From the IMG/VR virus record IMGVR_UViG_2563366870_000004, positions 1 to 42,584 of that record: a stretch of 42,584 bases of DNA; one strand, given 5' to 3'. Positions 23,733 to 37,371 of the stretch are shown one piece after another (position 1 is the stretch's first letter; each line of letters opens with the position of its first letter). This DNA is from a virus (taxonomy: Duplodnaviria; Heunggongvirae; Uroviricota; Caudoviricetes). Under the pieces are notes generated by a model. It was not told the DNA's origin. It searched no databases and was given only the letters and a program-made list of their open reading frames with translations. The position numbers were made by a program, and so were the translations under genes.

Positions 23733-24725
23733 TTACACCACGCGGGCTTCTGTTTCCAGAAGCGCATCAGTTTCACGGATTGGTACACCACGGAATGAAG
23801 TCCACCACTCGCCTTCAGTCTCTTTTACGCTGATAGCCAGAGATGTTTTCTCCAGAGACTGCAGATCAAGAGCCTGGCCTACAGTGCGGTTCATGTAGAA
23901 CACCGGGCGGCCCATGCCACGGTTTGGAATGCGATGCAGTGCTTTAACCATCAACTTCGCAATATTTGCGGCAGAGGAAGGTTCTGAAAGATTGCTGACA
24001 TCGATGTTTGCAATGCGAACAACATAACGCCAGTCACGCAGAGCAAGTCCGTTATCCCATTTGTAATGGGTGCGATAGCCTTCGTACTTGCCGCCATTAG
24101 CATCTTCCAGTGTCACCTGGCCTTTATCTTCCATCTGGATGCCAGCCTTCTGCCCTTTCGGGAAGATGCCATGCACGGTGTTTTCGCCCCACACCACTAA
24201 CCAGATTGAGGTGTTATCTGTACCCGTGCCACCAGCATCAATGATGTTCTGAGCATTACCCGCAGACAGGCTGGAATAGCGGGAGGACAGTCCCATAAAC
24301 TGCTGAGGGTTAACGCTGGAATCACCATAAAACAGCGTCTGCGCCATCTGCTGATTCATCGCTTCAATAAATGCGCGGTCTTCAGACAGGCGGAATTCGG
24401 CGGTATTACCGTTCAGATCAGCCAGTGACTTATCGACTTCAGCATAGGTTTCCAGCATGCCAACGGAGTCGGTGACCTGCACTGTGGTTGATTTGCTTGG
24501 CTGTACGCCATAGTTCAGCAAACGCCAGGTAGCTGAAGGTAAACCAGAACGAATGGTGGTTCGGTGTCCGGTAGGAAGGTTCCCTTCGACAAAAGGCATA
24601 TCCTGAAGGATCGGGTTAGTTTGACCGAGAAGCTCGATAATCTTATCGACTTTCCCGTTTGGATCGACGCGCTTACCCCAGTCAGCCAGCGTTAGCGCAG
24701 TTAAGCCTTTAACAGCCATTGTCAT
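23733..24725 (-). CDS. Major capsid protein
   Basis: 330 aa, follows the acidic scaffold gene, downstream of portal. Confidence 0.7.
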   Translation of the reverse strand: MTMAVKGLTALTLADWGKRVDPNGKVDKIIELLGQTNPILQDMPFVEGNLPTGHRTTIRSGLPSATWRLLNYGVQPSKSTTVQVTDSVGMLETYAEVDKSLADLNGNTAEFRLSEDRAFIEAMNQQMAQTLFYGDSSVNPQQFMGLSSRYSSLSAGNAQNIIDAGGTGTDNTSIWLVVWGENTVHGIFPKGQKAGIQMEDKGQVTLEDANGGKYEGYRTHYKWDNGLALRDWRYVVRIANIDVSNLSEPSSAANIAKLMVKALHRIPNRGMGRPVFYMNRTVGQALDLQSLEKTSLAISVKETEGEWWTSFRGVPIRETDALLETEARVV

Positions 24726-24733
24726 TTCCTCTC

Positions 24734-25447
24734 TTATTTGCCATAGAGCACTTCGGCCGCACTACGCTGGCCTTCATTACCACCGGTGACCATGCCATCT
24801 TCAGACATCGCCTTTCCGATTTTCACGAACGTTTTGACCAGATCAGGGTGATTACCCAGCCCGGTGGTGTTCAGATATTCTTTGAGTTCAGGTGTCCCGA
24901 ACTGGTCAAGCGCACGCTGTGCGGCGCTAAGGTTAGAAATCAACTTGTCGCCACCGATTTCTTTGTCAGCTTTTACATCCGCAGCCCACTGCTCGGTTGT
25001 TTTCTGCCAGGCTTCTGCCTGGCGCTGCTGAACACCTGCCAGAATCTTCGGATAAGCATCAACCAGCTTTTGCGCTTGCTCGTTGGTCAGGTTAAGTTCT
25101 CGCGCCACCGGCTCGAATTCCTTCAACGCTTCTGTATCCAGCTCTACGCCTTCGGCAGCCTGAAACTCGTACTTCTCAGGCGCACCCTCTGGCTTCTTAT
25201 CCTTTTCTGCTTCTTCGGTATTGGCTTTTTCAGCAGCAAGCTCTCCCTCAGTTTTCTGAGCTTCAGAACCTTTCTCAGAGTCAGTCCCCTGGGAGTTATC
25301 CTGCGACTGGGTTTGCTCCTGCATTTCACCCGAGCCCTGAGTGGTTTCAGTTGCTCCCGTTGAAGCTGTATCTGCCTGGCCACCTTCAGTGGATTGCTCA
25401 TTGCAAAGACGGCGATACAGCAAACGCTCAAATAAATTCATGATCAC
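24734..25447 (-). CDS. Scaffolding protein
   Basis: 237 aa acidic, helical low-complexity protein between portal and capsid genes. Confidence 0.55.
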   Translation of the reverse strand: MIMNLFERLLYRRLCNEQSTEGGQADTASTGATETTQGSGEMQEQTQSQDNSQGTDSEKGSEAQKTEGELAAEKANTEEAEKDKKPEGAPEKYEFQAAEGVELDTEALKEFEPVARELNLTNEQAQKLVDAYPKILAGVQQRQAEAWQKTTEQWAADVKADKEIGGDKLISNLSAAQRALDQFGTPELKEYLNTTGLGNHPDLVKTFVKIGKAMSEDGMVTGGNEGQRSAAEVLYGK

Positions 25448-25740
25448 TCCTGTTCACTGGCCTCTTTGGCCATCTTCAAATACTGTTCAGGGCAATGCGC
25501 CATAACGCGCTGAAACAGCTCCAGCGCCAGATTGCGTTGCCCCTCATAAAATGCCATTGCCATAGCGTCCATCGGAGAGATAGCGGAAAACACCCGGCCT
25601 TTCTCCAGCACAGACCAGACAACGCGACGCCCCTGTTCACTGCTCATGACAAAGCGAATGTCATCAATTTCACGCTGCGCCATGTCACGTTGCTTACGGG
25701 CGTTTTCTTCTTTCAGTTGATCGTCTTCGTAATCTGTCAT
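25444..25740 (-). CDS. Hypothetical head morphogenesis protein
   Basis: 98 aa, overlaps portal stop and scaffold start by 4 nt each. Confidence 0.45.
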   Translation of the reverse strand: MTDYEDDQLKEENARKQRDMAQREIDDIRFVMSSEQGRRVVWSVLEKGRVFSAISPMDAMAMAFYEGQRNLALELFQRVMAHCPEQYLKMAKEASEQE

Positions 25741-27416
25741 TGTGATTGCCCACCCTGACCACTAACTGCATTCGCCATAGCTGACAAAACACTCGGATCC
25801 GAAGTTTTAGCTTCGCTTAGCGTCTTGGCACCCTGTGCCGCCGCCATCCCCATCTCCATCATTTGTTGCTGCTGTTGTTGCTGTGCCCGTTGCTGGCGAG
25901 CCTGCTCAACCTGTTCCTGCGGAACAATGACGGTTGGAGACACTCCGGACATATCAGCGAATGCATCGATCGCCTGATCAACGTTGAGTTTGTCGAGAGC
26001 TTCTGGTTTCGCTTGCGCAAGTTGACCAATGAAGTTGACCGTAGACGCCAGACTGGACAGGCCGATAGACTTCTGCGCCTGAGCCATGACGGAAATGTAT
26101 TCGACCTTCAGGGGCATACCTTCCATCGCGTCAGGCGGTGGCGGCAGCATGTTTTTACGCACCATCATCGAGAAAGCGCGGTCAATGAGAGGATTAAGAC
26201 ATTCGTCGTTCAGACGCTCCAGAACCGGCCCCAACATCAGAAGTTTTTCTTCTTTCATTTCGATCACCGCTTCAACAGGCATCGAGCGGGTATTGATGTT
26301 CTGCAACATCATGAACAGATCGACAAAGTAGGCGCTGTTAATGATTTGACGAGTGTCCTGAATGTCTGCCACCAAATCTGCTGTACTGGGGTTAACCAGA
26401 TAAGCAGGCCTGAAACCATCATGACCAGTAATCTGATCGATATACGTGATGTCGCCAGGAAGAAGGGAGGCGCGCTGATTCTTGAGGGAAGTCGGAGCAA
26501 CCATCGGCGGATTGGTGGCTTTATCAATCAACTGCGACTTGCGCTTCTGGAGAAGCTGCAATGCCTTAACAGGTCCAAGCGCCAGCATACCCGGGCATGA
26601 TGATCCATAAACATCTTCGCCGTTAACTTCCCAGCGCGGAGCCATAATTGGAAACTCATCGAATCCGGACTCACGCAACAACTTGTCGTTATCGCCACCA
26701 ACCTCGTAATAAACCGATTTGAATGGCTTGTTCTTGCTATCCAGCTTCGATGTATCGCGGTCAATGTTCGGGTAAACCGAATGCATCACTTCAATCCACT
26801 TCTCGTAGGTGCCGCTTTCCCACATGCTTTTTACGGATTCGCTGACGTTATTTAGCCCGAACTCCTGAACAAGCTGACGAACAGTCATAGAGAACTTGCG
26901 AAAACAGGTGTCCACACTGCCACGAGGTGAGTTAGCCAGGTAGTAACTTCCTATCGGGAATGGCATTGTGCGAATGATGTCCTCGTCATCCTCCAGCACT
27001 GCCATTGCACCAGTGCTGTATGTGCCGAGGCTTCCGTATAACTGCGGCAGCGACTGATAGAGATTCGACTTATTGAACATATCGTTCATGCGGTTCTGCA
27101 CCGCCTCAAGCCACAACTTAACAGGGCCATAATCCATCATTTCAGGATCTGGCGTAGCCAGGCGAAACCACGGACGCGCGGGGCTTGTGATGCCTGACAT
27201 CATGCCGCTGGCGAGAGTGCGCGCCGCCATAGTCCCGGTCGAATCAATAATGCGTGTATTGCGTCGATCGTTACGGTTGACCTCAGAAGTCAGAAAGCGG
27301 GAACCACGCGGGTTGATGTAATCACTCAACTCGCGCCAGTGCGGCTCGAACGACTGACGCTCGCTTTCAAGTTGTGCGAACTGTTTGTTCAATCGCTCTT
27401 TAGTTGTTTCCGCCAT
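25737..27416 (-). CDS. Portal protein
   Basis: 559 aa, downstream of terminase; size and position typical of podovirus portal. Confidence 0.8.
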   Translation of the reverse strand: MAETTKERLNKQFAQLESERQSFEPHWRELSDYINPRGSRFLTSEVNRNDRRNTRIIDSTGTMAARTLASGMMSGITSPARPWFRLATPDPEMMDYGPVKLWLEAVQNRMNDMFNKSNLYQSLPQLYGSLGTYSTGAMAVLEDDEDIIRTMPFPIGSYYLANSPRGSVDTCFRKFSMTVRQLVQEFGLNNVSESVKSMWESGTYEKWIEVMHSVYPNIDRDTSKLDSKNKPFKSVYYEVGGDNDKLLRESGFDEFPIMAPRWEVNGEDVYGSSCPGMLALGPVKALQLLQKRKSQLIDKATNPPMVAPTSLKNQRASLLPGDITYIDQITGHDGFRPAYLVNPSTADLVADIQDTRQIINSAYFVDLFMMLQNINTRSMPVEAVIEMKEEKLLMLGPVLERLNDECLNPLIDRAFSMMVRKNMLPPPPDAMEGMPLKVEYISVMAQAQKSIGLSSLASTVNFIGQLAQAKPEALDKLNVDQAIDAFADMSGVSPTVIVPQEQVEQARQQRAQQQQQQQMMEMGMAAAQGAKTLSEAKTSDPSVLSAMANAVSGQGGQSQ

Positions 27417-27430
27417 TTCAATGACTCCGG

Positions 27431-27637
27431 TTACTGACCAAGCAGCGTTTTACCGCTGGTATTAGCGGTTGATGTGTCGCCCTGAGAACCGGTAAGCAGC
27501 GTAGAACTACGACCAGCAGCAGCGCGACGGCGACGAGTTTCTTCGTCGCGGGCATCAACAACGGCGGCATCCTGCTCCTGTGGTGCTGCCTGAACTTCTG
27601 GTGTTGCAGGCACTGATGGTGAGCTACCCATGCACAT
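27431..27637 (-). CDS. Small hydrophilic protein upstream of portal
   Basis: 68 aa; ribosome-binding context GGAGTCATTGA-N2-ATG is nearly identical to that of the portal gene. Confidence 0.35.
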   Translation of the reverse strand: MCMGSSPSVPATPEVQAAPQEQDAAVVDARDEETRRRRAAAGRSSTLLTGSQGDTSTANTSGKTLLGQ

Positions 27638-27664
27638 ATCAATGACTCCGTACGCAATTAAATT

Positions 27665-27687
27665 ATTACCAATTTAACCACATATGA
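27665..27687. promoter_or_regulatory. Conserved box ATTACCAATTTAACCACATATGA
   Basis: Second copy of the AAAACCACATATG-type box; 63 bp upstream of the palindrome at 27727. Confidence 0.4.
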
Positions 27688-27726
27688 TTTATTTATCGTA
27701 GACAGTTGACATTTAACGCACGAATT

Positions 27727-27743
27727 ATTACCTTTCAGGTAAC
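27727..27743. promoter_or_regulatory. Operator-like palindrome ATTACCT-TTC-AGGTAAC (1 mismatch)
   Basis: Intergenic, between the portal-upstream region and the tRNA; TTGACA hexamer 15 bp upstream. Confidence 0.55.
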
Positions 27744-28064
27744 CAAAGAGTTCATTCCGGTTACTAACCTGACTGGCTTGTCGTTAAATTGAACAGGTGG
27801 AGTGAGCTTTTATTTTGAGCAGTACGGCGTATGGCACATGCGCCGATAGCGGTCTGGATACGTTTAAGGGGCACCCTCCCTTGCTCGGGCAAACGAACCA
27901 GGTAGCCGGAATGTGCAAGTCGAGCGGTTTTATTCCGCGCACGGGGATTCACCATCCAGGCGATTCGGTGTGACACCTCGGAAGAGACGAGGGTACAACG
28001 ATGAGAGCATTTATGGAGCCGCGACAAAGTGTGGCGCCTTAACAGGCTAAGTGCTCTCAGCGTT

Positions 28065-28141
28065 GTGGCATTAGCTCAGCTGGACAGAGCAACCGCCTTC
28101 TAAGCGGTTGGTCGCAGGTTCGAATCCTGCATGCCACGCCA
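28065..28141 (+). tRNA. tRNA-Arg (anticodon UCU), phage-encoded
   Basis: Cloverleaf by hand: acceptor GTGGCAT/ATGCCAC, D-stem GCTC/GAGC, anticodon stem ACCGC/GCGGT with loop CTTCTAA, T-arm GCAGG-TTCGAAT-CCTGC, discriminator G, CCA. Confidence 0.85.
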
Positions 28142-28185
28142 GAATCACGCCTAAGGACCGTGATGCCAGAAGTTCCAGGGGGCTT

Positions 28186-28229
28186 GGCGGTGATGGTTTC
28201 CCTTGAAGGACTATCACCGCCCTTTTTAC
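28186..28229 (+). terminator. Hairpin plus T-run downstream of tRNA
   Basis: GGCGGTGAT...ATCACCGCC stem followed by CTTTTTAC. Confidence 0.45.
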
Positions 28230-28305
28230 AGCAGGACGCCATTGCGATGACTTCATGCTGTAAACCAGTACAGCCACGGAAGGCATAACTCATTGCTTCC
28301 AGTTC

Positions 28306-28329
28306 GCCCGGTTCGCCGGGCATTTTTTT
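28306..28329 (+). terminator. Hairpin plus T-run immediately before the accessory gene at 28341
   Basis: GCCCGG-TTCG-CCGGGC then ATTTTTTTA; could act as terminator or attenuator. Confidence 0.5.
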
Positions 28330-28340
28330 AAGGTGAGATT

Positions 28341-28763
28341 ATGAAGACAATTGATATGTTGGCTAAGTATCTAAATGAATGGCCATTAAAATATTCTCGT
28401 ATCGTTCAGGCTGAAGACTGCATTTTTTATGGCGTTTTTGCTGGTAATGAAATGCATTACGAAGTAATTCAGAGTGAGGGGCTGACCGGGTTAACTCTTA
28501 GAGAAGACCATGGTACTAGCGTTACGTTCCATGACTGGATAACAGCACAACGTTCTGAAATGGAAAAAGGCGATGTGTTTGATATTTCTCGCTCTGTTTG
28601 CGCTAAAGCAAAAAGTGATAATGATTACATGAGCGAACACTTATACAACATGAAGCTACAGTGCCTTGCCGAGGTGCTTGGTAAAAAAGCTATTGTCGAT
28701 AAACAAGGCGCCATTAGCGAAGCAAAGGCAATAAATGCTGCATTTGATGAAATTATTTTCTAG
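28341..28763 (+). CDS. Hypothetical accessory protein, opposite strand to the flanking virion genes
   Basis: 140 aa, AT-rich, AAGGTGAG ribosome-binding site, followed by a bidirectional terminator. Confidence 0.5.
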   Translation: MKTIDMLAKYLNEWPLKYSRIVQAEDCIFYGVFAGNEMHYEVIQSEGLTGLTLREDHGTSVTFHDWITAQRSEMEKGDVFDISRSVCAKAKSDNDYMSEHLYNMKLQCLAEVLGKKAIVDKQGAISEAKAINAAFDEIIF

Positions 28764-28853
28764 CTCTGTGACATGTCACAAACAGCCAGCCGATGAGCTG
28801 GCTTTGTTTTATCCTCATCAGAGGATATCAACGACATTATCCCCACCAGCGGA

Positions 28854-30329
28854 TTAATCATAGGGATCGTAATCTGTGATGGCCTTGCCTTGCTGGTTCT
28901 GCTGCCCGGGAATTCGCAGACACTTCGACACAGGGAAAGCAAACGTCAGCAGTAGCGCATCGCCTTTACCCGGCGAGCGCCCAAGCCGCTCCTTGATATC
29001 TTCCTTCGGTTCGATAACGATTTTACCGTCCACTCGAACTTTGTACTCTGCCGCCGACAGGTCGTCCGCTGTTTCCTGGTCATCCAGCATGCCGCCCAGC
29101 CTCAGCCATGTCTTGCATGAGTTGAACATCTCCCCGCGCTTATTGAGCATCTGCGGGTCAGTAGACGCGCCACCGAACGGAACAAGTTGCCATGTACGAC
29201 CCCAGCCGTCACCGATTGACTTCAGACCAGTTCCGTAACCGAAGTCGATGAACACTGCGTCAGCCTGGTACTGGTCTTCAAAGTCAGCGATACGCTTCGC
29301 CATAATCAGATCGTCAGTAGTCTTGTTGCCAGTCCACAGCACCTTACTGTGCAGCCCCTGCCGCAGGTATATCACCGCGTCATCAACGCCTGAGTATGCC
29401 GGGTCAACGCCGATTATCACCGGAGCATGTGCAACCTGCGCAGCGGTTACCACCCGTTTCATTGCCTCATCAGTAAGACCGGTAGGGATAAACTGCAATT
29501 CAGATGCATCAGGGAATATGCCGCGCACACGGATTTTAACGAAGTCGCTGTCTTCCCCGTAGTCATCAACCCATTTCTGCAACTGCTGTTTGTTAGTGCC
29601 TTCCACCGTCCGGCTGTCAATCTGCGCACACTTCCAGCGGTGTTTGTACTTGCGGAAACATTCACGGAAACGCCCGGTGTTACGCGTCGGGTTCCCGAAC
29701 GCCACCCAGATGATTTCGGTGTCTTCGTCCGTCAGCGCACCCTCTGCTACCTCCCACACAAGATCGGCAATATTCGACGCTTCATCGAATACCACGATGA
29801 TGCGTTTGCGCTCGTTGTGTAGTCCGGCGAATGCCTCAGTGTTGTGCTCAGACCAGGGGATTGCGTCAGCTCGCCACCGCTTGTCGTGCCCAGGGTCATT
29901 GCTGTACATCGCGGTAGCGGTACAGGTAAACCAGTCTTTCGTGATAGCAAGGTTTGACCACTTGATAATTTCCGGCCAGGTCTTCGTTCGTAGCTGGTTG
30001 TCGGTGTTGGCGGTCACCACGACCTTACAATCCTCGCAAGTGGACATGCCCCAGTTGATCAGCATTGAGATAAATGCGGATTTACCAATACCGTGACCAG
30101 AAGCGCGTGCCAGCATAAGCGGCTGATAGCGCGTCTCTGGATTCTGCAGGTGATCACGTATCTCTCGGAACGCATCAGCCTGCCATTGACGTGGGCCGGT
30201 AGCATGTGCCAGTTCAGTCCCCTCTTCCCCCCACGGGAACGCATAGAGAGCATAGCCAAGCGGATCGTGAGTGAACCCTGCAATATCCTCGATCAACTGC
30301 TCTTCAGGAGATAACGCTGTATCTGTCAC
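28854..30329 (-). CDS. Terminase large subunit
   Basis: 491 aa; Walker A-like GHGIGKS; C-terminal nuclease-type acidic motifs. Confidence 0.9.
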   Translation of the reverse strand: MTDTALSPEEQLIEDIAGFTHDPLGYALYAFPWGEEGTELAHATGPRQWQADAFREIRDHLQNPETRYQPLMLARASGHGIGKSAFISMLINWGMSTCEDCKVVVTANTDNQLRTKTWPEIIKWSNLAITKDWFTCTATAMYSNDPGHDKRWRADAIPWSEHNTEAFAGLHNERKRIIVVFDEASNIADLVWEVAEGALTDEDTEIIWVAFGNPTRNTGRFRECFRKYKHRWKCAQIDSRTVEGTNKQQLQKWVDDYGEDSDFVKIRVRGIFPDASELQFIPTGLTDEAMKRVVTAAQVAHAPVIIGVDPAYSGVDDAVIYLRQGLHSKVLWTGNKTTDDLIMAKRIADFEDQYQADAVFIDFGYGTGLKSIGDGWGRTWQLVPFGGASTDPQMLNKRGEMFNSCKTWLRLGGMLDDQETADDLSAAEYKVRVDGKIVIEPKEDIKERLGRSPGKGDALLLTFAFPVSKCLRIPGQQNQQGKAITDYDPYD

Positions 30330-30922
30330 TGATTACCATCCTGACGTTCTTTGAGTCGCTTCCTGGCTGCTGCTATGCGATCAGCAATTGTCACATTCAC
30401 ATTAACATCCAGGCGTTCTTTGAATGCGTTGACGTCGACGTGCTTACCAATCAGTTCGAGGTTCTTCACCTTGTCAGGCCATTTAATTTTTTTGAGGATT
30501 GTCTCTATCGAATCCTCGTTCATGTTCATGATGGTCGATGACAGATCAAAGCCGCTAAGCGTAGTGCGCCAGATTTTCGGCCACTCGCGGATTGGCTTAA
30601 GGCTCCCATCGTCGTTGAGGATGTCGATCACGTCCATCTGGTCGATCTCCACCAGGCGCATGAGAACGTAATCAGCACTGACGCGCATTCGTTTGTTGCG
30701 CTCTTCCATCAGCTCGGCAATCCGTTTTTGAATGCGTTCATCGCGCATCATGACACTGGCTTTAACTGCCGCTGTATTTGGGGAGAATCCTGCGTTAATC
30801 GCTGCCTGAGTCTGGTTTTCAGGCGTTTTGATGTATGACTGGCAATAAGCCTCCTGCATTGCTGTTAGTGGCTTAAATTGCGTTGATTTGCGTTTATAGG
30901 TTTTAGGTTCAGCAGGCATCAT
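30326..30922 (-). CDS. Terminase small subunit
   Basis: Directly upstream of and overlapping the large subunit; start placed at internal MMPAEP with GGTGG ribosome-binding site (track ORF extends to 31000). Confidence 0.6.
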   Translation of the reverse strand: MMPAEPKTYKRKSTQFKPLTAMQEAYCQSYIKTPENQTQAAINAGFSPNTAAVKASVMMRDERIQKRIAELMEERNKRMRVSADYVLMRLVEIDQMDVIDILNDDGSLKPIREWPKIWRTTLSGFDLSSTIMNMNEDSIETILKKIKWPDKVKNLELIGKHVDVNAFKERLDVNVNVTIADRIAAARKRLKERQDGNQ

Positions 30923-30996
30923 AACCACCGTGGTAATAGTTACCGTTGTGGTAATAGTACCATGCAAAATAAAGCCGCCATAGTTGGCGGCAGTAT

Positions 30997-31209
30997 TCAA
31001 AGTCCATCAAATTCATCGTAAAAACTCTCGTCAAGATACCCTTCCCATTTACCGCGAATGAAAATTACATCCTCGCCGCAAGGGTGCTGACTGTCGATAA
31101 CTATATCCCTCCTGGCGCAACCATACTTATGCATGAGAAATTTAACCTCTTTCGGAAAATTTGCTGAGTTATCTCTCATATCTTCAAGGTCGTAGCGTAT
31201 TTTTGGCAT
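30997..31209 (-). CDS. Hypothetical protein
   Basis: Track ORF 30997-31230; start placed at internal Met (MPKIRYD). Confidence 0.35.
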   Translation of the reverse strand: MPKIRYDLEDMRDNSANFPKEVKFLMHKYGCARRDIVIDSQHPCGEDVIFIRGKWEGYLDESFYDEFDGL

Positions 31210-36668: not shown

Positions 36669-37253
36669 ATGAAAAGTATCCAGGACGTCCGCAGGCAAAA
36701 TCTCAACGACTTGATCGACCGTGAATTCAATGGTGTTCAGACGCGGATGGCAGAAAAACTTGGAACTCAGGCAAATCTGGTAAACCGCTGGGCTCTTGGC
36801 AAGAAGGTTATCGGCGACCAGGTTGCGCGAAAAATTGAAGCTGCCGCCAATAAACCCCGTAACTGGCTTGATATCGATCGCTCGCTTTCTCAAGAAGGTT
36901 TTCAGCCTGTCGGACCAAGCGACATTGGTCAGCTGGCGGCTCACAACCTGGAACGTTGGATGAGCGAAAGCCGAGACCTTTCAACGCAGGGAAAACTTCA
37001 CCGCGCATCCGGTGTCGCCCAAGTGACAATCAGCCGCCTGTTAAACAATGAGGTCAGCGTTTCCATTTCCACCCTGGAGAATGTTGCATCCGCATTCGGG
37101 CGTCACGGCTATGAATTACTGATTCACCCGCACGACCCTGCGACTATCAACTATGATCGCTCGCGCTACGCATTGTTACCTGAAACAGAGAAGGCAAAGA
37201 TCGAAAGTTACATTGAATTTGTCATCAACCAGAACGAAAAAAGCAAACAATAA
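36669..37253 (+). CDS. Prophage repressor candidate, dual HTH (XRE-type) domains, no S24 peptidase domain evident
   Basis: 194 aa; HTH-like segments QTRMAEKLGTQANLVNRW and LHRASGVAQVTISRLLNNE; flanked on both sides by the palindromic sites. Confidence 0.6.
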   Translation: MKSIQDVRRQNLNDLIDREFNGVQTRMAEKLGTQANLVNRWALGKKVIGDQVARKIEAAANKPRNWLDIDRSLSQEGFQPVGPSDIGQLAAHNLERWMSESRDLSTQGKLHRASGVAQVTISRLLNNEVSVSISTLENVASAFGRHGYELLIHPHDPATINYDRSRYALLPETEKAKIESYIEFVINQNEKSKQ

Positions 37254-37326: not shown

Positions 37327-37371
37327 TTTTTTAACTCATATCTATTGACAACAAACCAAATACGCATAATT

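Follow-up and report, generated by a model that had tools for sequence, protein, structure and literature searches.

The sponge families Tad2 (PF11195), Acb4 (PF13876) and Sequestin (PF21825) are made up of small phage proteins that are often modular or fused to one another. The first of these Pfam entries is the Thoeris anti-defence Tad2 family. PF13876 corresponds to Acb4, a family of sponges for the cyclic nucleotides cGAMP and cUA (10.1101/2024.12.30.630793), and the Sequestin sponges were discovered by using fusion to Tad2 or Acb4 as the criterion (10.1101/2025.07.12.664507). Here, we analyse ORF140, an open reading frame (ORF) of 140 amino acids (aa) in the virus record IMGVR_UViG_2563366870_000004, whose 42,584 nucleotides (nt), referred to as the window, are those of an epsilon15/phiV10-like Escherichia coli phage or prophage of the genus Uetakevirus. 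An earlier reading made from the letters of the window (the sequence-only reading) had described this ORF as an accessory gene on the strand opposite to the late operon, lying between a tRNA gene and the terminase. We tentatively propose that ORF140 is a counter-defence protein.

ORF140 resembles the sponges in its surroundings. Tad2-like and Acb4-family alleles fill exactly the same slot in sister phages, E. coli PF9285 encodes the N-terminal domain (N-domain) of ORF140 joined to one that is Tad2-like, and a 61-aa version of its C-terminal domain (C-domain) is encoded beside an Acb4-family gene in phage BUCT554. It differs from them in matching none of the Tad2, Acb4 and Sequestin profiles at E<=10 and in having no fold match that we could find. 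The likeness to Sequestin is one of context and not of sequence. It is the C-domain, a predicted helical hairpin, that stands beside Acb4; the part fused to a Tad2-like domain is the N-domain, which is not helical only. The Acb4-family proteins PhiV10p03 and ABK13674 (epsilon15), of about 120 aa, occupy the same slot, with the same terminator and Shine-Dalgarno (SD) sequence on the left and palindrome and terminator on the right, but are unrelated to ORF140 in sequence (PF13876 and PHROG 322 versus PHROG 4846).

Two further types of system invite comparison. Like the morons (lambda bor and lom, HK97-type inserts), ORF140 is an extra gene of deviant GC content which is followed by a terminator and varies between close relatives. 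Unlike a moron, which consists of promoter, gene and terminator, it has no promoter of its own and is directly preceded by a terminator and a shared SD; moreover, its likely promoter is repressor-controlled, so that lytic and not lysogenic expression is predicted. The order of promoter, short or structured RNA, strong terminator or terminators and coding gene recalls the lambda pR'-6S-tR'-late gene arrangement governed by Q and the PL-putL-terminator arrangement of HK022. In contrast to both, the annotation of PAS61, a close relative, lists no protein of the Q or N type, and the direction is opposite to that of the late operon.

ORF140 occupies a hypervariable slot between conserved flanks

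The coordinates of all features, including the three terminator-like hairpins T1, T2 and T3, are given in Table 1. The tRNA-Arg gene and ORF140, both on the + strand, sit between TerL and a 68-aa ORF, antiparallel to the packaging and head operon, of which TerS, TerL, the 68-aa ORF and the portal gene are all encoded on the - strand. The placement given by the sequence-only reading was thus correct. A stretch of 1.46 kb around ORF140 matched phage HEMP4 over its full length at 98.6% identity and PAS61 at 92%; phiV10, ZX5, TL-2011b and others covered only about 70% of it, as two pieces. When the window was aligned with PAS61, phiV10 and TL-2011b, the flanks were found to be near-identical and the coding cassette to be swapped wholesale. 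The left breakpoint falls after hairpin T2, its U-tract and the SD (in TL-2011b, directly after the U-tract), and the right one just before the palindrome TGTGACATGTCACA and T3. Between the same flanks, unrelated genes are present in phiV10, TL-2011b, epsilon15, Tyrion, BUCT554 and a Klebsiella phage, and all the contexts that we fetched for the ORF140 family lie between TerL and the portal gene of Uetakevirus-type prophages, as the first + strand gene past the hairpin. We are therefore highly confident that this is a hypervariable slot with conserved terminator and SD flanks, as was expected from the suggestion that the gene sits in a cargo slot. ORF140 is the first gene of this genus-wide Uetakevirus cargo slot between TerL and the portal operon, in which whole coding cassettes are exchanged between T2, U-tract and SD on the left and palindrome and T3 on the right. 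A structural or packaging role for ORF140 was rejected, because near-identical phages have unrelated genes in its place.

The same suggestion had placed the slot next to a tRNA, as in lambdoid phages, and this part did not hold: the phage is a Uetakevirus, and epsilon15, Tyrion and BUCT554, from which the tRNA-Arg gene is absent, all retain the slot. The slot is therefore not defined by the tRNA, which rides in the + strand unit as another passenger that can be dispensed with.

Hairpins were indeed found to bracket ORF140 (T2 before it and T3 after it), and the terminator-like structure reported just ahead of the ribosome-binding site is there, its stem ending about 9-11 nt before the SD and its U-tract touching it, with the ATG of ORF140 at 28341. 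T2 has a 6-bp all-GC stem, a UUCG loop and a folding energy of -12.7 kcal/mol, and lacks a T-run on the - strand. By count, the terminator-like sites are within chance (4 found versus 1.7 +/- 1.3 in shuffled sequences), and the fold z-score of this short hairpin is only -1.2. Nevertheless, in 10 of 12 related loci, hairpin, T7 tract and SD stand directly ahead of the ATG of the first cargo gene, regardless of which gene that is. The stem GCCCGG/CCGGGC becomes GCCCAC/GTGGGC through two compensatory pairs (GG/CC to AC/GT), with variable loops, a change that was also seen in further genomes. It is this conservation across loci, and not the number of sites, which makes T2 credible. The T2 hairpin is annotated as a rho-independent terminator in the epsilon15 record, and that of T3 as a terminator on the other strand in the phiV10 record.

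The palindrome of the right flank is kept in PAS61, phiV10 and epsilon15, with any cargo, and may be a protein-binding site. The palindrome of the window doubles as the -35 of GTGACA-16-AATAAT (10/12), a promoter-like site on the - strand from which transcription would enter ORF140 in antisense.

Sponge genes fill the slot in sister phages, and the domains of ORF140 are shuffled

The slot allele of phiV10, PhiV10p03, matched PF13876 (Phage_gp49_66) with an E-value of 6.3e-35, and the epsilon15 record describes its own allele as similar to PhiV10p03. The second slot gene in both BUCT554 and an Enterobacter prophage also belongs to PF13876, according to annotation and precomputed Pfam hits. PF11195 ('Tad2-like') genes occupy the slot in Klebsiella phage ST512-KPC3phi13.3 and in three E. 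coli prophages, with E-values of 4e-26 for ST512-KPC3phi13.3 and 1e-23 for E. coli PF9285. DUF551 and other uncharacterised genes are housed there as well.

The PF9285 protein is a natural chimera. Its first 73 residues are the N-part of ORF140 (70 of 73 identical), followed by the Tad2-like domain, and the two genes share 97.7% of their DNA over 221 nt, the junction being located at the boundary between N-domain and linker. In the sister allele L024:1501-2007, the Tad2-like match (E 1.2e-23) is confined to residues 78-167. The C-domain is encoded alone in BUCT554, directly upstream of the Acb4-family gene, and is attached to unrelated N-domains in Tyrion gp53, P0096 and P0099. Conversely, the N-domain carries a different C-terminal domain in P0100 and P0109, and variants of 201 aa have this latter domain appended after both ORF140 domains. 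We also noticed a third shuffling module, C-terminal and of about 45 aa (motif ..P.I.WL..N..PH......T.AEL......T..YL.D.), in L007:5001-5606 (P0047), P0088, P0100 and P0109; it can come after the N-domain on its own or after the two domains of ORF140 together, and had no match in Pfam.

Since slot alleles are Acb4-like and Tad2-like sponges and the N-domain is itself fused to a Tad2-like domain, counter-defence is the function that we favour for ORF140, with due reserve, and the way in which its two domains are shuffled as modules agrees with a gene in an arms race. ORF140 would be a small, acidic, cytoplasmic protein of two domains which binds or sequesters a component or signal of host immunity. 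We infer this activity and its target, as we do the timing of expression and the read-through discussed below.

A conserved module upstream of the slot was present over at least 80% of its length in 502 of 5,426 complete E. coli genomes (about 9%). In the same set, DNA of the Acb4-type allele matched 445 genomes, where its location is not necessarily the slot in every case, ORF140-type DNA was found as prophage cargo in 62, the TL-2011b type matched 11 and the N-Tad2 chimera 3. In 41 of the 62 genomes with ORF140-type DNA, only the first 326 nt are shared, which corresponds to an alternative C-terminal allele.

ORF140 belongs to a small family conserved under purifying selection

The AT-richness ascribed to ORF140 was confirmed, its GC content being 39.2% (35% at third codon positions, GC3), against 48% for the window, 54.5% for TerL and 51.5% for the portal gene. 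Conservation, the lack of which had been named as a refutation, was found in 80 homologues of 38-99% identity from Escherichia, Salmonella, Citrobacter, Enterobacter and Klebsiella, all of them annotated as hypothetical; across these five genera, the length is kept at 134-146 aa. Pairwise dN/dS against homologues about 72% identical was 0.14-0.18 at a dS of about 1, which makes purifying selection clear. The SD is strong and correctly spaced. That ORF140 is a real gene can be regarded as practically certain.

ORF140 matched PHROG 4846 (function unknown) from end to end (E 6e-88), so that its family is already catalogued as 'unknown'. An exhaustive profile search of 1.84 billion representative proteins returned only 32 representatives, all of one small family or its domain-swap relatives, and hence the family is small. 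ORF140 and each of its domains gave zero matches to Pfam up to E=10, including the Tad2-like (PF11195) and Phage_gp49_66 (PF13876) profiles; nor did PF21825 (Sequestin) match the N-domain, the C-domain or the stand-alone C-domain proteins of 61-74 aa at that threshold. No match was obtained among the 5,027 defence models of PADLOC, a sequence profile search of the PDB returned nothing credible, and Foldseek against BFVD gave only weak matches to uncharacterised proteins. The view that the gene is of unknown function and not structural was thereby upheld: neither profile nor structure searches matched a structural phage protein, and the gene is replaceable in near-identical phages.

AlphaFold2 predicted an N-domain (residues 1-75) with the order alpha, four beta strands, alpha, joined by a low-confidence linker to a C-terminal helical hairpin (residues 93-137). 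Modelled alone, the N-domain reached a pLDDT of 81.5 and a pTM of 0.71. The protein is acidic (pI 5.0), with a GRAVY of -0.22, and no hydrophobic or signal-like segment was seen by eye.

Expression of the cassette probably depends on read-through of T2

T2 and the SD are contiguous, with no promoter-like site between them, and none above threshold was found between the tRNA and T2, where only sub-threshold hexamers could be seen by eye. A promoter between tRNA and ORF140 was rejected on these grounds and because PAS61, in which 33 bp upstream of T2 are deleted, retains the gene. The sole + strand candidate upstream of the cassette is a putative promoter about 640 nt from ORF140 whose -10 is overlapped by an operator-like palindrome, ATTACCTTTCAGGTAAC. 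The operator family to which this palindrome belongs, ATTACC-N5-GGTAAT, is represented in the window by about 11 sites (9 matches versus 0.04 expected). Nearly all of them are intergenic, and some flank a putative repressor gene (36669-37253). The arrangement of -10 and operator, AATTAT|TACC, is the same in the PL-like promoter downstream of this gene (TTGACA-17-AATTAT|TACC, about 37345-37373) and in a - strand promoter at about 34229, and the epsilon15 record annotates the site homologous to 27727-27743 as repressor-binding. More generally, several of the dispersed palindromes overlap promoter-like sites at the -10, with a geometry that does not vary, which suggests that one repressor controls many promoters throughout the genome, among them a promoter within the morphogenesis region.

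As there is no promoter between T2 and the SD and a lone + strand promoter-like site lies upstream, we consider expression of ORF140 by read-through from the operator-controlled promoter to be on balance probable. According to this model, the + strand unit would run through promoter/operator, structured RNA, tRNA-Arg, T1, a further hairpin, T2, SD, ORF140 and T3 and converge on TerL; ORF140, which lacks its own promoter, would depend on transcription from the one near 27700, at a level set by the transcription that passes T1 and T2, and it would be made in lytic development, after loss of the repressor, and not in the lysogen. ORF140 is thus probably a lytic-phase gene and not one of lysogenic conversion.

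The sequence-only reading had offered attenuation or read-through control as the meaning of the hairpin. Read-through gains plausibility from the conserved junction and the missing promoter. Of the marks of a classical attenuator, we found no conserved leader peptide and, in a non-exhaustive inspection, saw no alternative pairing with the 5' arm of T2. The evidence thus fits read-through control of ORF140 better than classical attenuation. An ORF of 42 codons (28160-28288, +) begins just past the tRNA with GTG at 28160 and an ATG one codon in, preceded by an SD-like TAAGGA, reads across T1 as well as the hairpin after it and has its stop 18 nt ahead of T2. The 33-bp deletion of PAS61 takes its stop-codon region and, by eye, leaves the frame open through T2 to a TGA in the SD; epsilon15 differs by indels across this stretch, also by eye. 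This ORF is probably non-coding, yet it is the sole candidate for a leader ORF. The paper on phage ZX5 contains no RNA-seq data and makes no mention of terminators.

A hypothetical gene annotated on the - strand of phiV10 (PhiV10p04), TL-2011b and BUCT554 overlaps the tRNA gene and the terminator hairpins from the opposite strand, and is probably a spurious call.

Table 1. Features of the ORF140 locus and of the window; positions are those of the window unless a locus is named.
Feature	Position	Strand	Remarks
Portal gene	27416-25737	-	
68-aa ORF	27637-27431	-	
Promoter-like site	27699-27728	+	TAGACA-18-AATTAT; sole + strand candidate upstream of the cassette; putative
Operator-like palindrome	27727-27743		ATTACCTTTCAGGTAAC; overlaps the -10 of 27699-27728
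Structured RNA motif	27825-28058	+	about 170-240 nt; 5-6 helices and pseudoknot
RNA helices	P1 27825-45; P2 27853-57/27898-902; P3 27919-21/27959-61; P4 27944-47/27955-58; P5 27976-80/27988-92		
RNA pseudoknot	27950-53/27967-70		
RNA helix P6	28003-09/28052-58		optional
Invariant 19-mer of the RNA motif	27901-19		GGTAGCCGGAATGTGCAAG
PhiV10p04-type ORF	28057-28323; L002:2172-2423; L003:2172-2423; L005:1968-2219	-	probably spurious gene call
tRNA-Arg	28065-28141	+	anticodon UCU (tct); ARAGORN; Rfam tRNA 71.7 bits
T1, terminator-like hairpin	28186-28228	+	14-bp stem (28186-28221), CTTTTTA tail; directly after the tRNA
Inverted repeat (hairpin)	28225-28264	+	18-nt arms; between T1 and T2
T2, terminator	28306-28329	+	GCCCGG-UUCG-CCGGGC (stem-loop 28306-28321), then A+U7 (28322-29)
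SD	28330-28337	+	AAGGTGAG; conserved flank common to different cargo genes
ORF140	28341-28763	+	ATG start, TAG stop; 140 aa; PHROG 4846
Palindrome	28767-28780		TGTGACATGTCACA; perfect, 14 bp; between stop codon and T3; conserved right flank
T3, terminator-like hairpin	28784-28812	+	AGCCAGC-CGATGA-GCTGGCT (28784-28803), tail TTGTTTTAT; between convergent ORF140 and TerL
TerL	30329-28854	-	
TerS	31000-30326	-	
Operator-like sites ATTACC-N5-GGTAAT	5871, 8885, 8978, 10016, 27727, 30939, 34229, 34291, 36598, 37310, 37372		

A structured RNA precedes the tRNA and is shared by several phage groups

Non-coding DNA between the promoter-like site and the tRNA (27824-28064) matched unannotated DNA of several phage groups at about 72-84% identity. 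In the E. coli set, 665 records matched this stretch at 80-90% identity, and 274 of the matching places were on plasmids. The motif is found in lambdoid phages (mEp460, cdtI, Stx2c and Stx2a phages, mEp390 and CPS-53-like prophages), in P1-like phages and plasmids (P1, P7, D6, SJ46), where it lies between trnI and ban, and also in Klebsiella phages and phage BUCT708. Among species-representative genomes, 24 stretches were found to contain the invariant 19-mer GGTAGCCGGAATGTGCAAG; one of them, in an Oscillospiraceae contig, looks like chance, and most of the others are enterobacterial.

A structure with helices P1-P5 and a loop pseudoknot was drawn by hand on 30 distinct copies. Standard pairs filled 96.3% of the cells, and compensatory changes were observed in 12 of 30 pairs (67 cells), values which none of 500 shuffles reached and for which slid controls gave at most 5 compensatory pairs. 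G-U pairs establish that the RNA strand is the + strand. Independent support for P1, P4 and P5, with covariation, came from RNAalifold, and the covariance model that we built had a single match in the window (27803-28015, 166.7 bits). The RNA has no Rfam identity: searches of Rfam 15 at E<=1 with the window stretch and six other loci bearing the motif returned only tRNA, and the conserved strings of the RNA were absent from the searchable literature. Homology to HK022 put was rejected as well, as region 24000-31000 of HK022 (immunity region, putL/putR) gave no match with nhmmer at E<=10 or with the covariance model at E<=1.

In lambdoid phages without N, the RNA lies just past cI and its terminator, the position of the PL leader. 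This placement after cI was seen in mEp460, Stx2a_1447, mEp390, BUCT708 and a CPS-53-like prophage, and promoter-like sites were seen just upstream of the RNA in mEp390 and BUCT708. About 19 of 36 loci, namely those of Uetakevirus type and BUCT708, have a T2-type terminator (GCCC..GGGC+ATTTTTTTA) after the RNA; where its surroundings are lambdoid or those of P1, the next 900 nt contained no intrinsic terminator. Only a degenerate remnant of the RNA (40 bits) is left in epsilon15, where T2 and the cargo are kept.

Further observations concern the surroundings of the RNA. BUCT708 has an RprA-like Rfam match below threshold (L020:1631-1750; 50 bits versus a gathering score of 70) between the motif and a T2-like terminator, GCCCGGGCGCCCCGGGC+ATTTTTTTAA. 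The presence of that terminator in BUCT708 means that a T2-type terminator follows the RNA in an unrelated phage backbone too. In SPN1S (L022:1660-1740) and Stx2a_1447 (L016:2180-2250), the 3' helix of the motif, P6, is swapped for a shared sequence with the tRNA T-arm-like GGTTCAATTCC. The motif of P1 begins 15 nt past trnI, and that of the window ends 7 nt before tRNA-Arg; this recurrent tRNA adjacency suggests that tRNA-processing enzymes generate the ends of the RNA. As to its role, the RNA may act as a leader or processing element or as a put-like antiterminator, or it may be a non-coding RNA that stands alone and has T2 as its terminator.

Alternative explanations

The locus could be read in other ways. 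ORF140 could be a moron that is expressed from the prophage, made in the lysogen through leaky read-through or an unrecognised promoter, and that benefits the host by superinfection exclusion, by defence against other phages or by an effect on fitness or virulence. The low GC content (39% versus 48-54%), the downstream terminator, the orientation opposite to the late genes and the occurrence as prophage cargo in 62 of 5,426 complete E. coli genomes all agree with such a gene. Nonetheless, we consider it unlikely, since there is no promoter-like site from T2 to the SD, the operator of a repressor is overlapped by the one candidate further upstream, none of the 5,027 PADLOC models was matched, the protein lacks the hydrophobic or signal-like segment of many exclusion proteins (by eye; GRAVY -0.22) and sister phages have in its place anti-defence sponges, whose action serves the phage while it infects. 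We give similarly little credence to a lytic accessory protein with no relation to immunity, such as one that modulates metabolism, replication or transcription in the host or that, beside the terminase, helps in packaging or assembly, for which the sponge alleles would be a coincidence. It is true that ORF140 adjoins TerL, that its fold and function have no assignment and that the slot also holds DUF551 and uncharacterised genes, but phages about 98% identical have unrelated genes in its place, so that it is not needed for packaging or assembly, and its N-domain is physically fused to a Tad2-like domain. Finally, a non-functional or decaying ORF or an annotation artefact, to which the purely hypothetical annotations and the small family might point, is essentially refuted by the selection signature (dN/dS of 0.14-0.18 at a dS of about 1), together with the narrow range of lengths (134-146 aa in five genera), the strong and correctly spaced SD and the confidently predicted N-domain (pLDDT 81.5, pTM 0.71).

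As regards expression, the upstream RNA could act in cis as a processive antiterminator in the manner of HK022 put, in which case T1 and T2 would be ignored and the cargo fully expressed once the promoter fires, instead of by leaky termination. This too seems unlikely to us. Its appeal comes from position: the RNA is placed between promoter and terminators, in N-less lambdoid phages it stands exactly at the nutL/putL place, after cI and its terminator, and in BUCT708 the order is promoter, RNA, strong T2-like terminator and early-left genes; in addition, the junction of T2 and SD is conserved, as though read-through were required. On the other hand, no sequence or structure similarity to the putL and putR region of HK022 was detected by nhmmer or the covariance model, the RNA is far from put in size and shape (about 170-240 nt and 5-6 helices versus two stems in about 70 nt), no intrinsic terminator comes within 900 nt in lambdoid or P1 surroundings, and epsilon15 has T2 and cargo with only a degenerate remnant of the RNA (40 bits). 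Moreover, an RNA followed by T2 resembles an ordinary stand-alone RNA gene with its terminator. Extending the antiterminator to the whole unit yields a bolder scheme, which we hold to be quite improbable: an RNA-gated counter-defence operon, with the RNA as a new class of cis-acting antiterminator and ORF140 as a new family of sponges or inhibitors. In that event, the RNA would carry polymerase through T1 and T2 after loss of the repressor and so turn the cargo on, the antiterminator class would be common to N-less lambdoid phages, P1-like phages and Uetakeviruses, and ORF140 would act via its N-domain, its helical C-domain or both. Our preference, still tentative as to function, remains a counter-defence protein expressed in lytic growth by read-through from the operator-controlled promoter.

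Significance

This analysis adds a functional hypothesis for ORF140, drawn from the alleles of its slot and from a natural fusion, and an anatomy of its transcription unit. If ORF140 is indeed a counter-defence protein, it would represent a new, structurally unassigned family in the anti-immunity repertoire of phages, and the natural domain-swap variants (the fusion of the N-domain to a Tad2-like domain, the C-domain alone, and both domains with extra ones) would help to assign roles to the domains. The compact and sharply bounded 'anti-defence slot', whose upstream module is carried by about 9% of complete E. coli genomes, can be mined for further inhibitors, and the terminator/SD junction, together with the unannotated RNA, offers a tractable system in which to study how temperate phages time and dose such genes.

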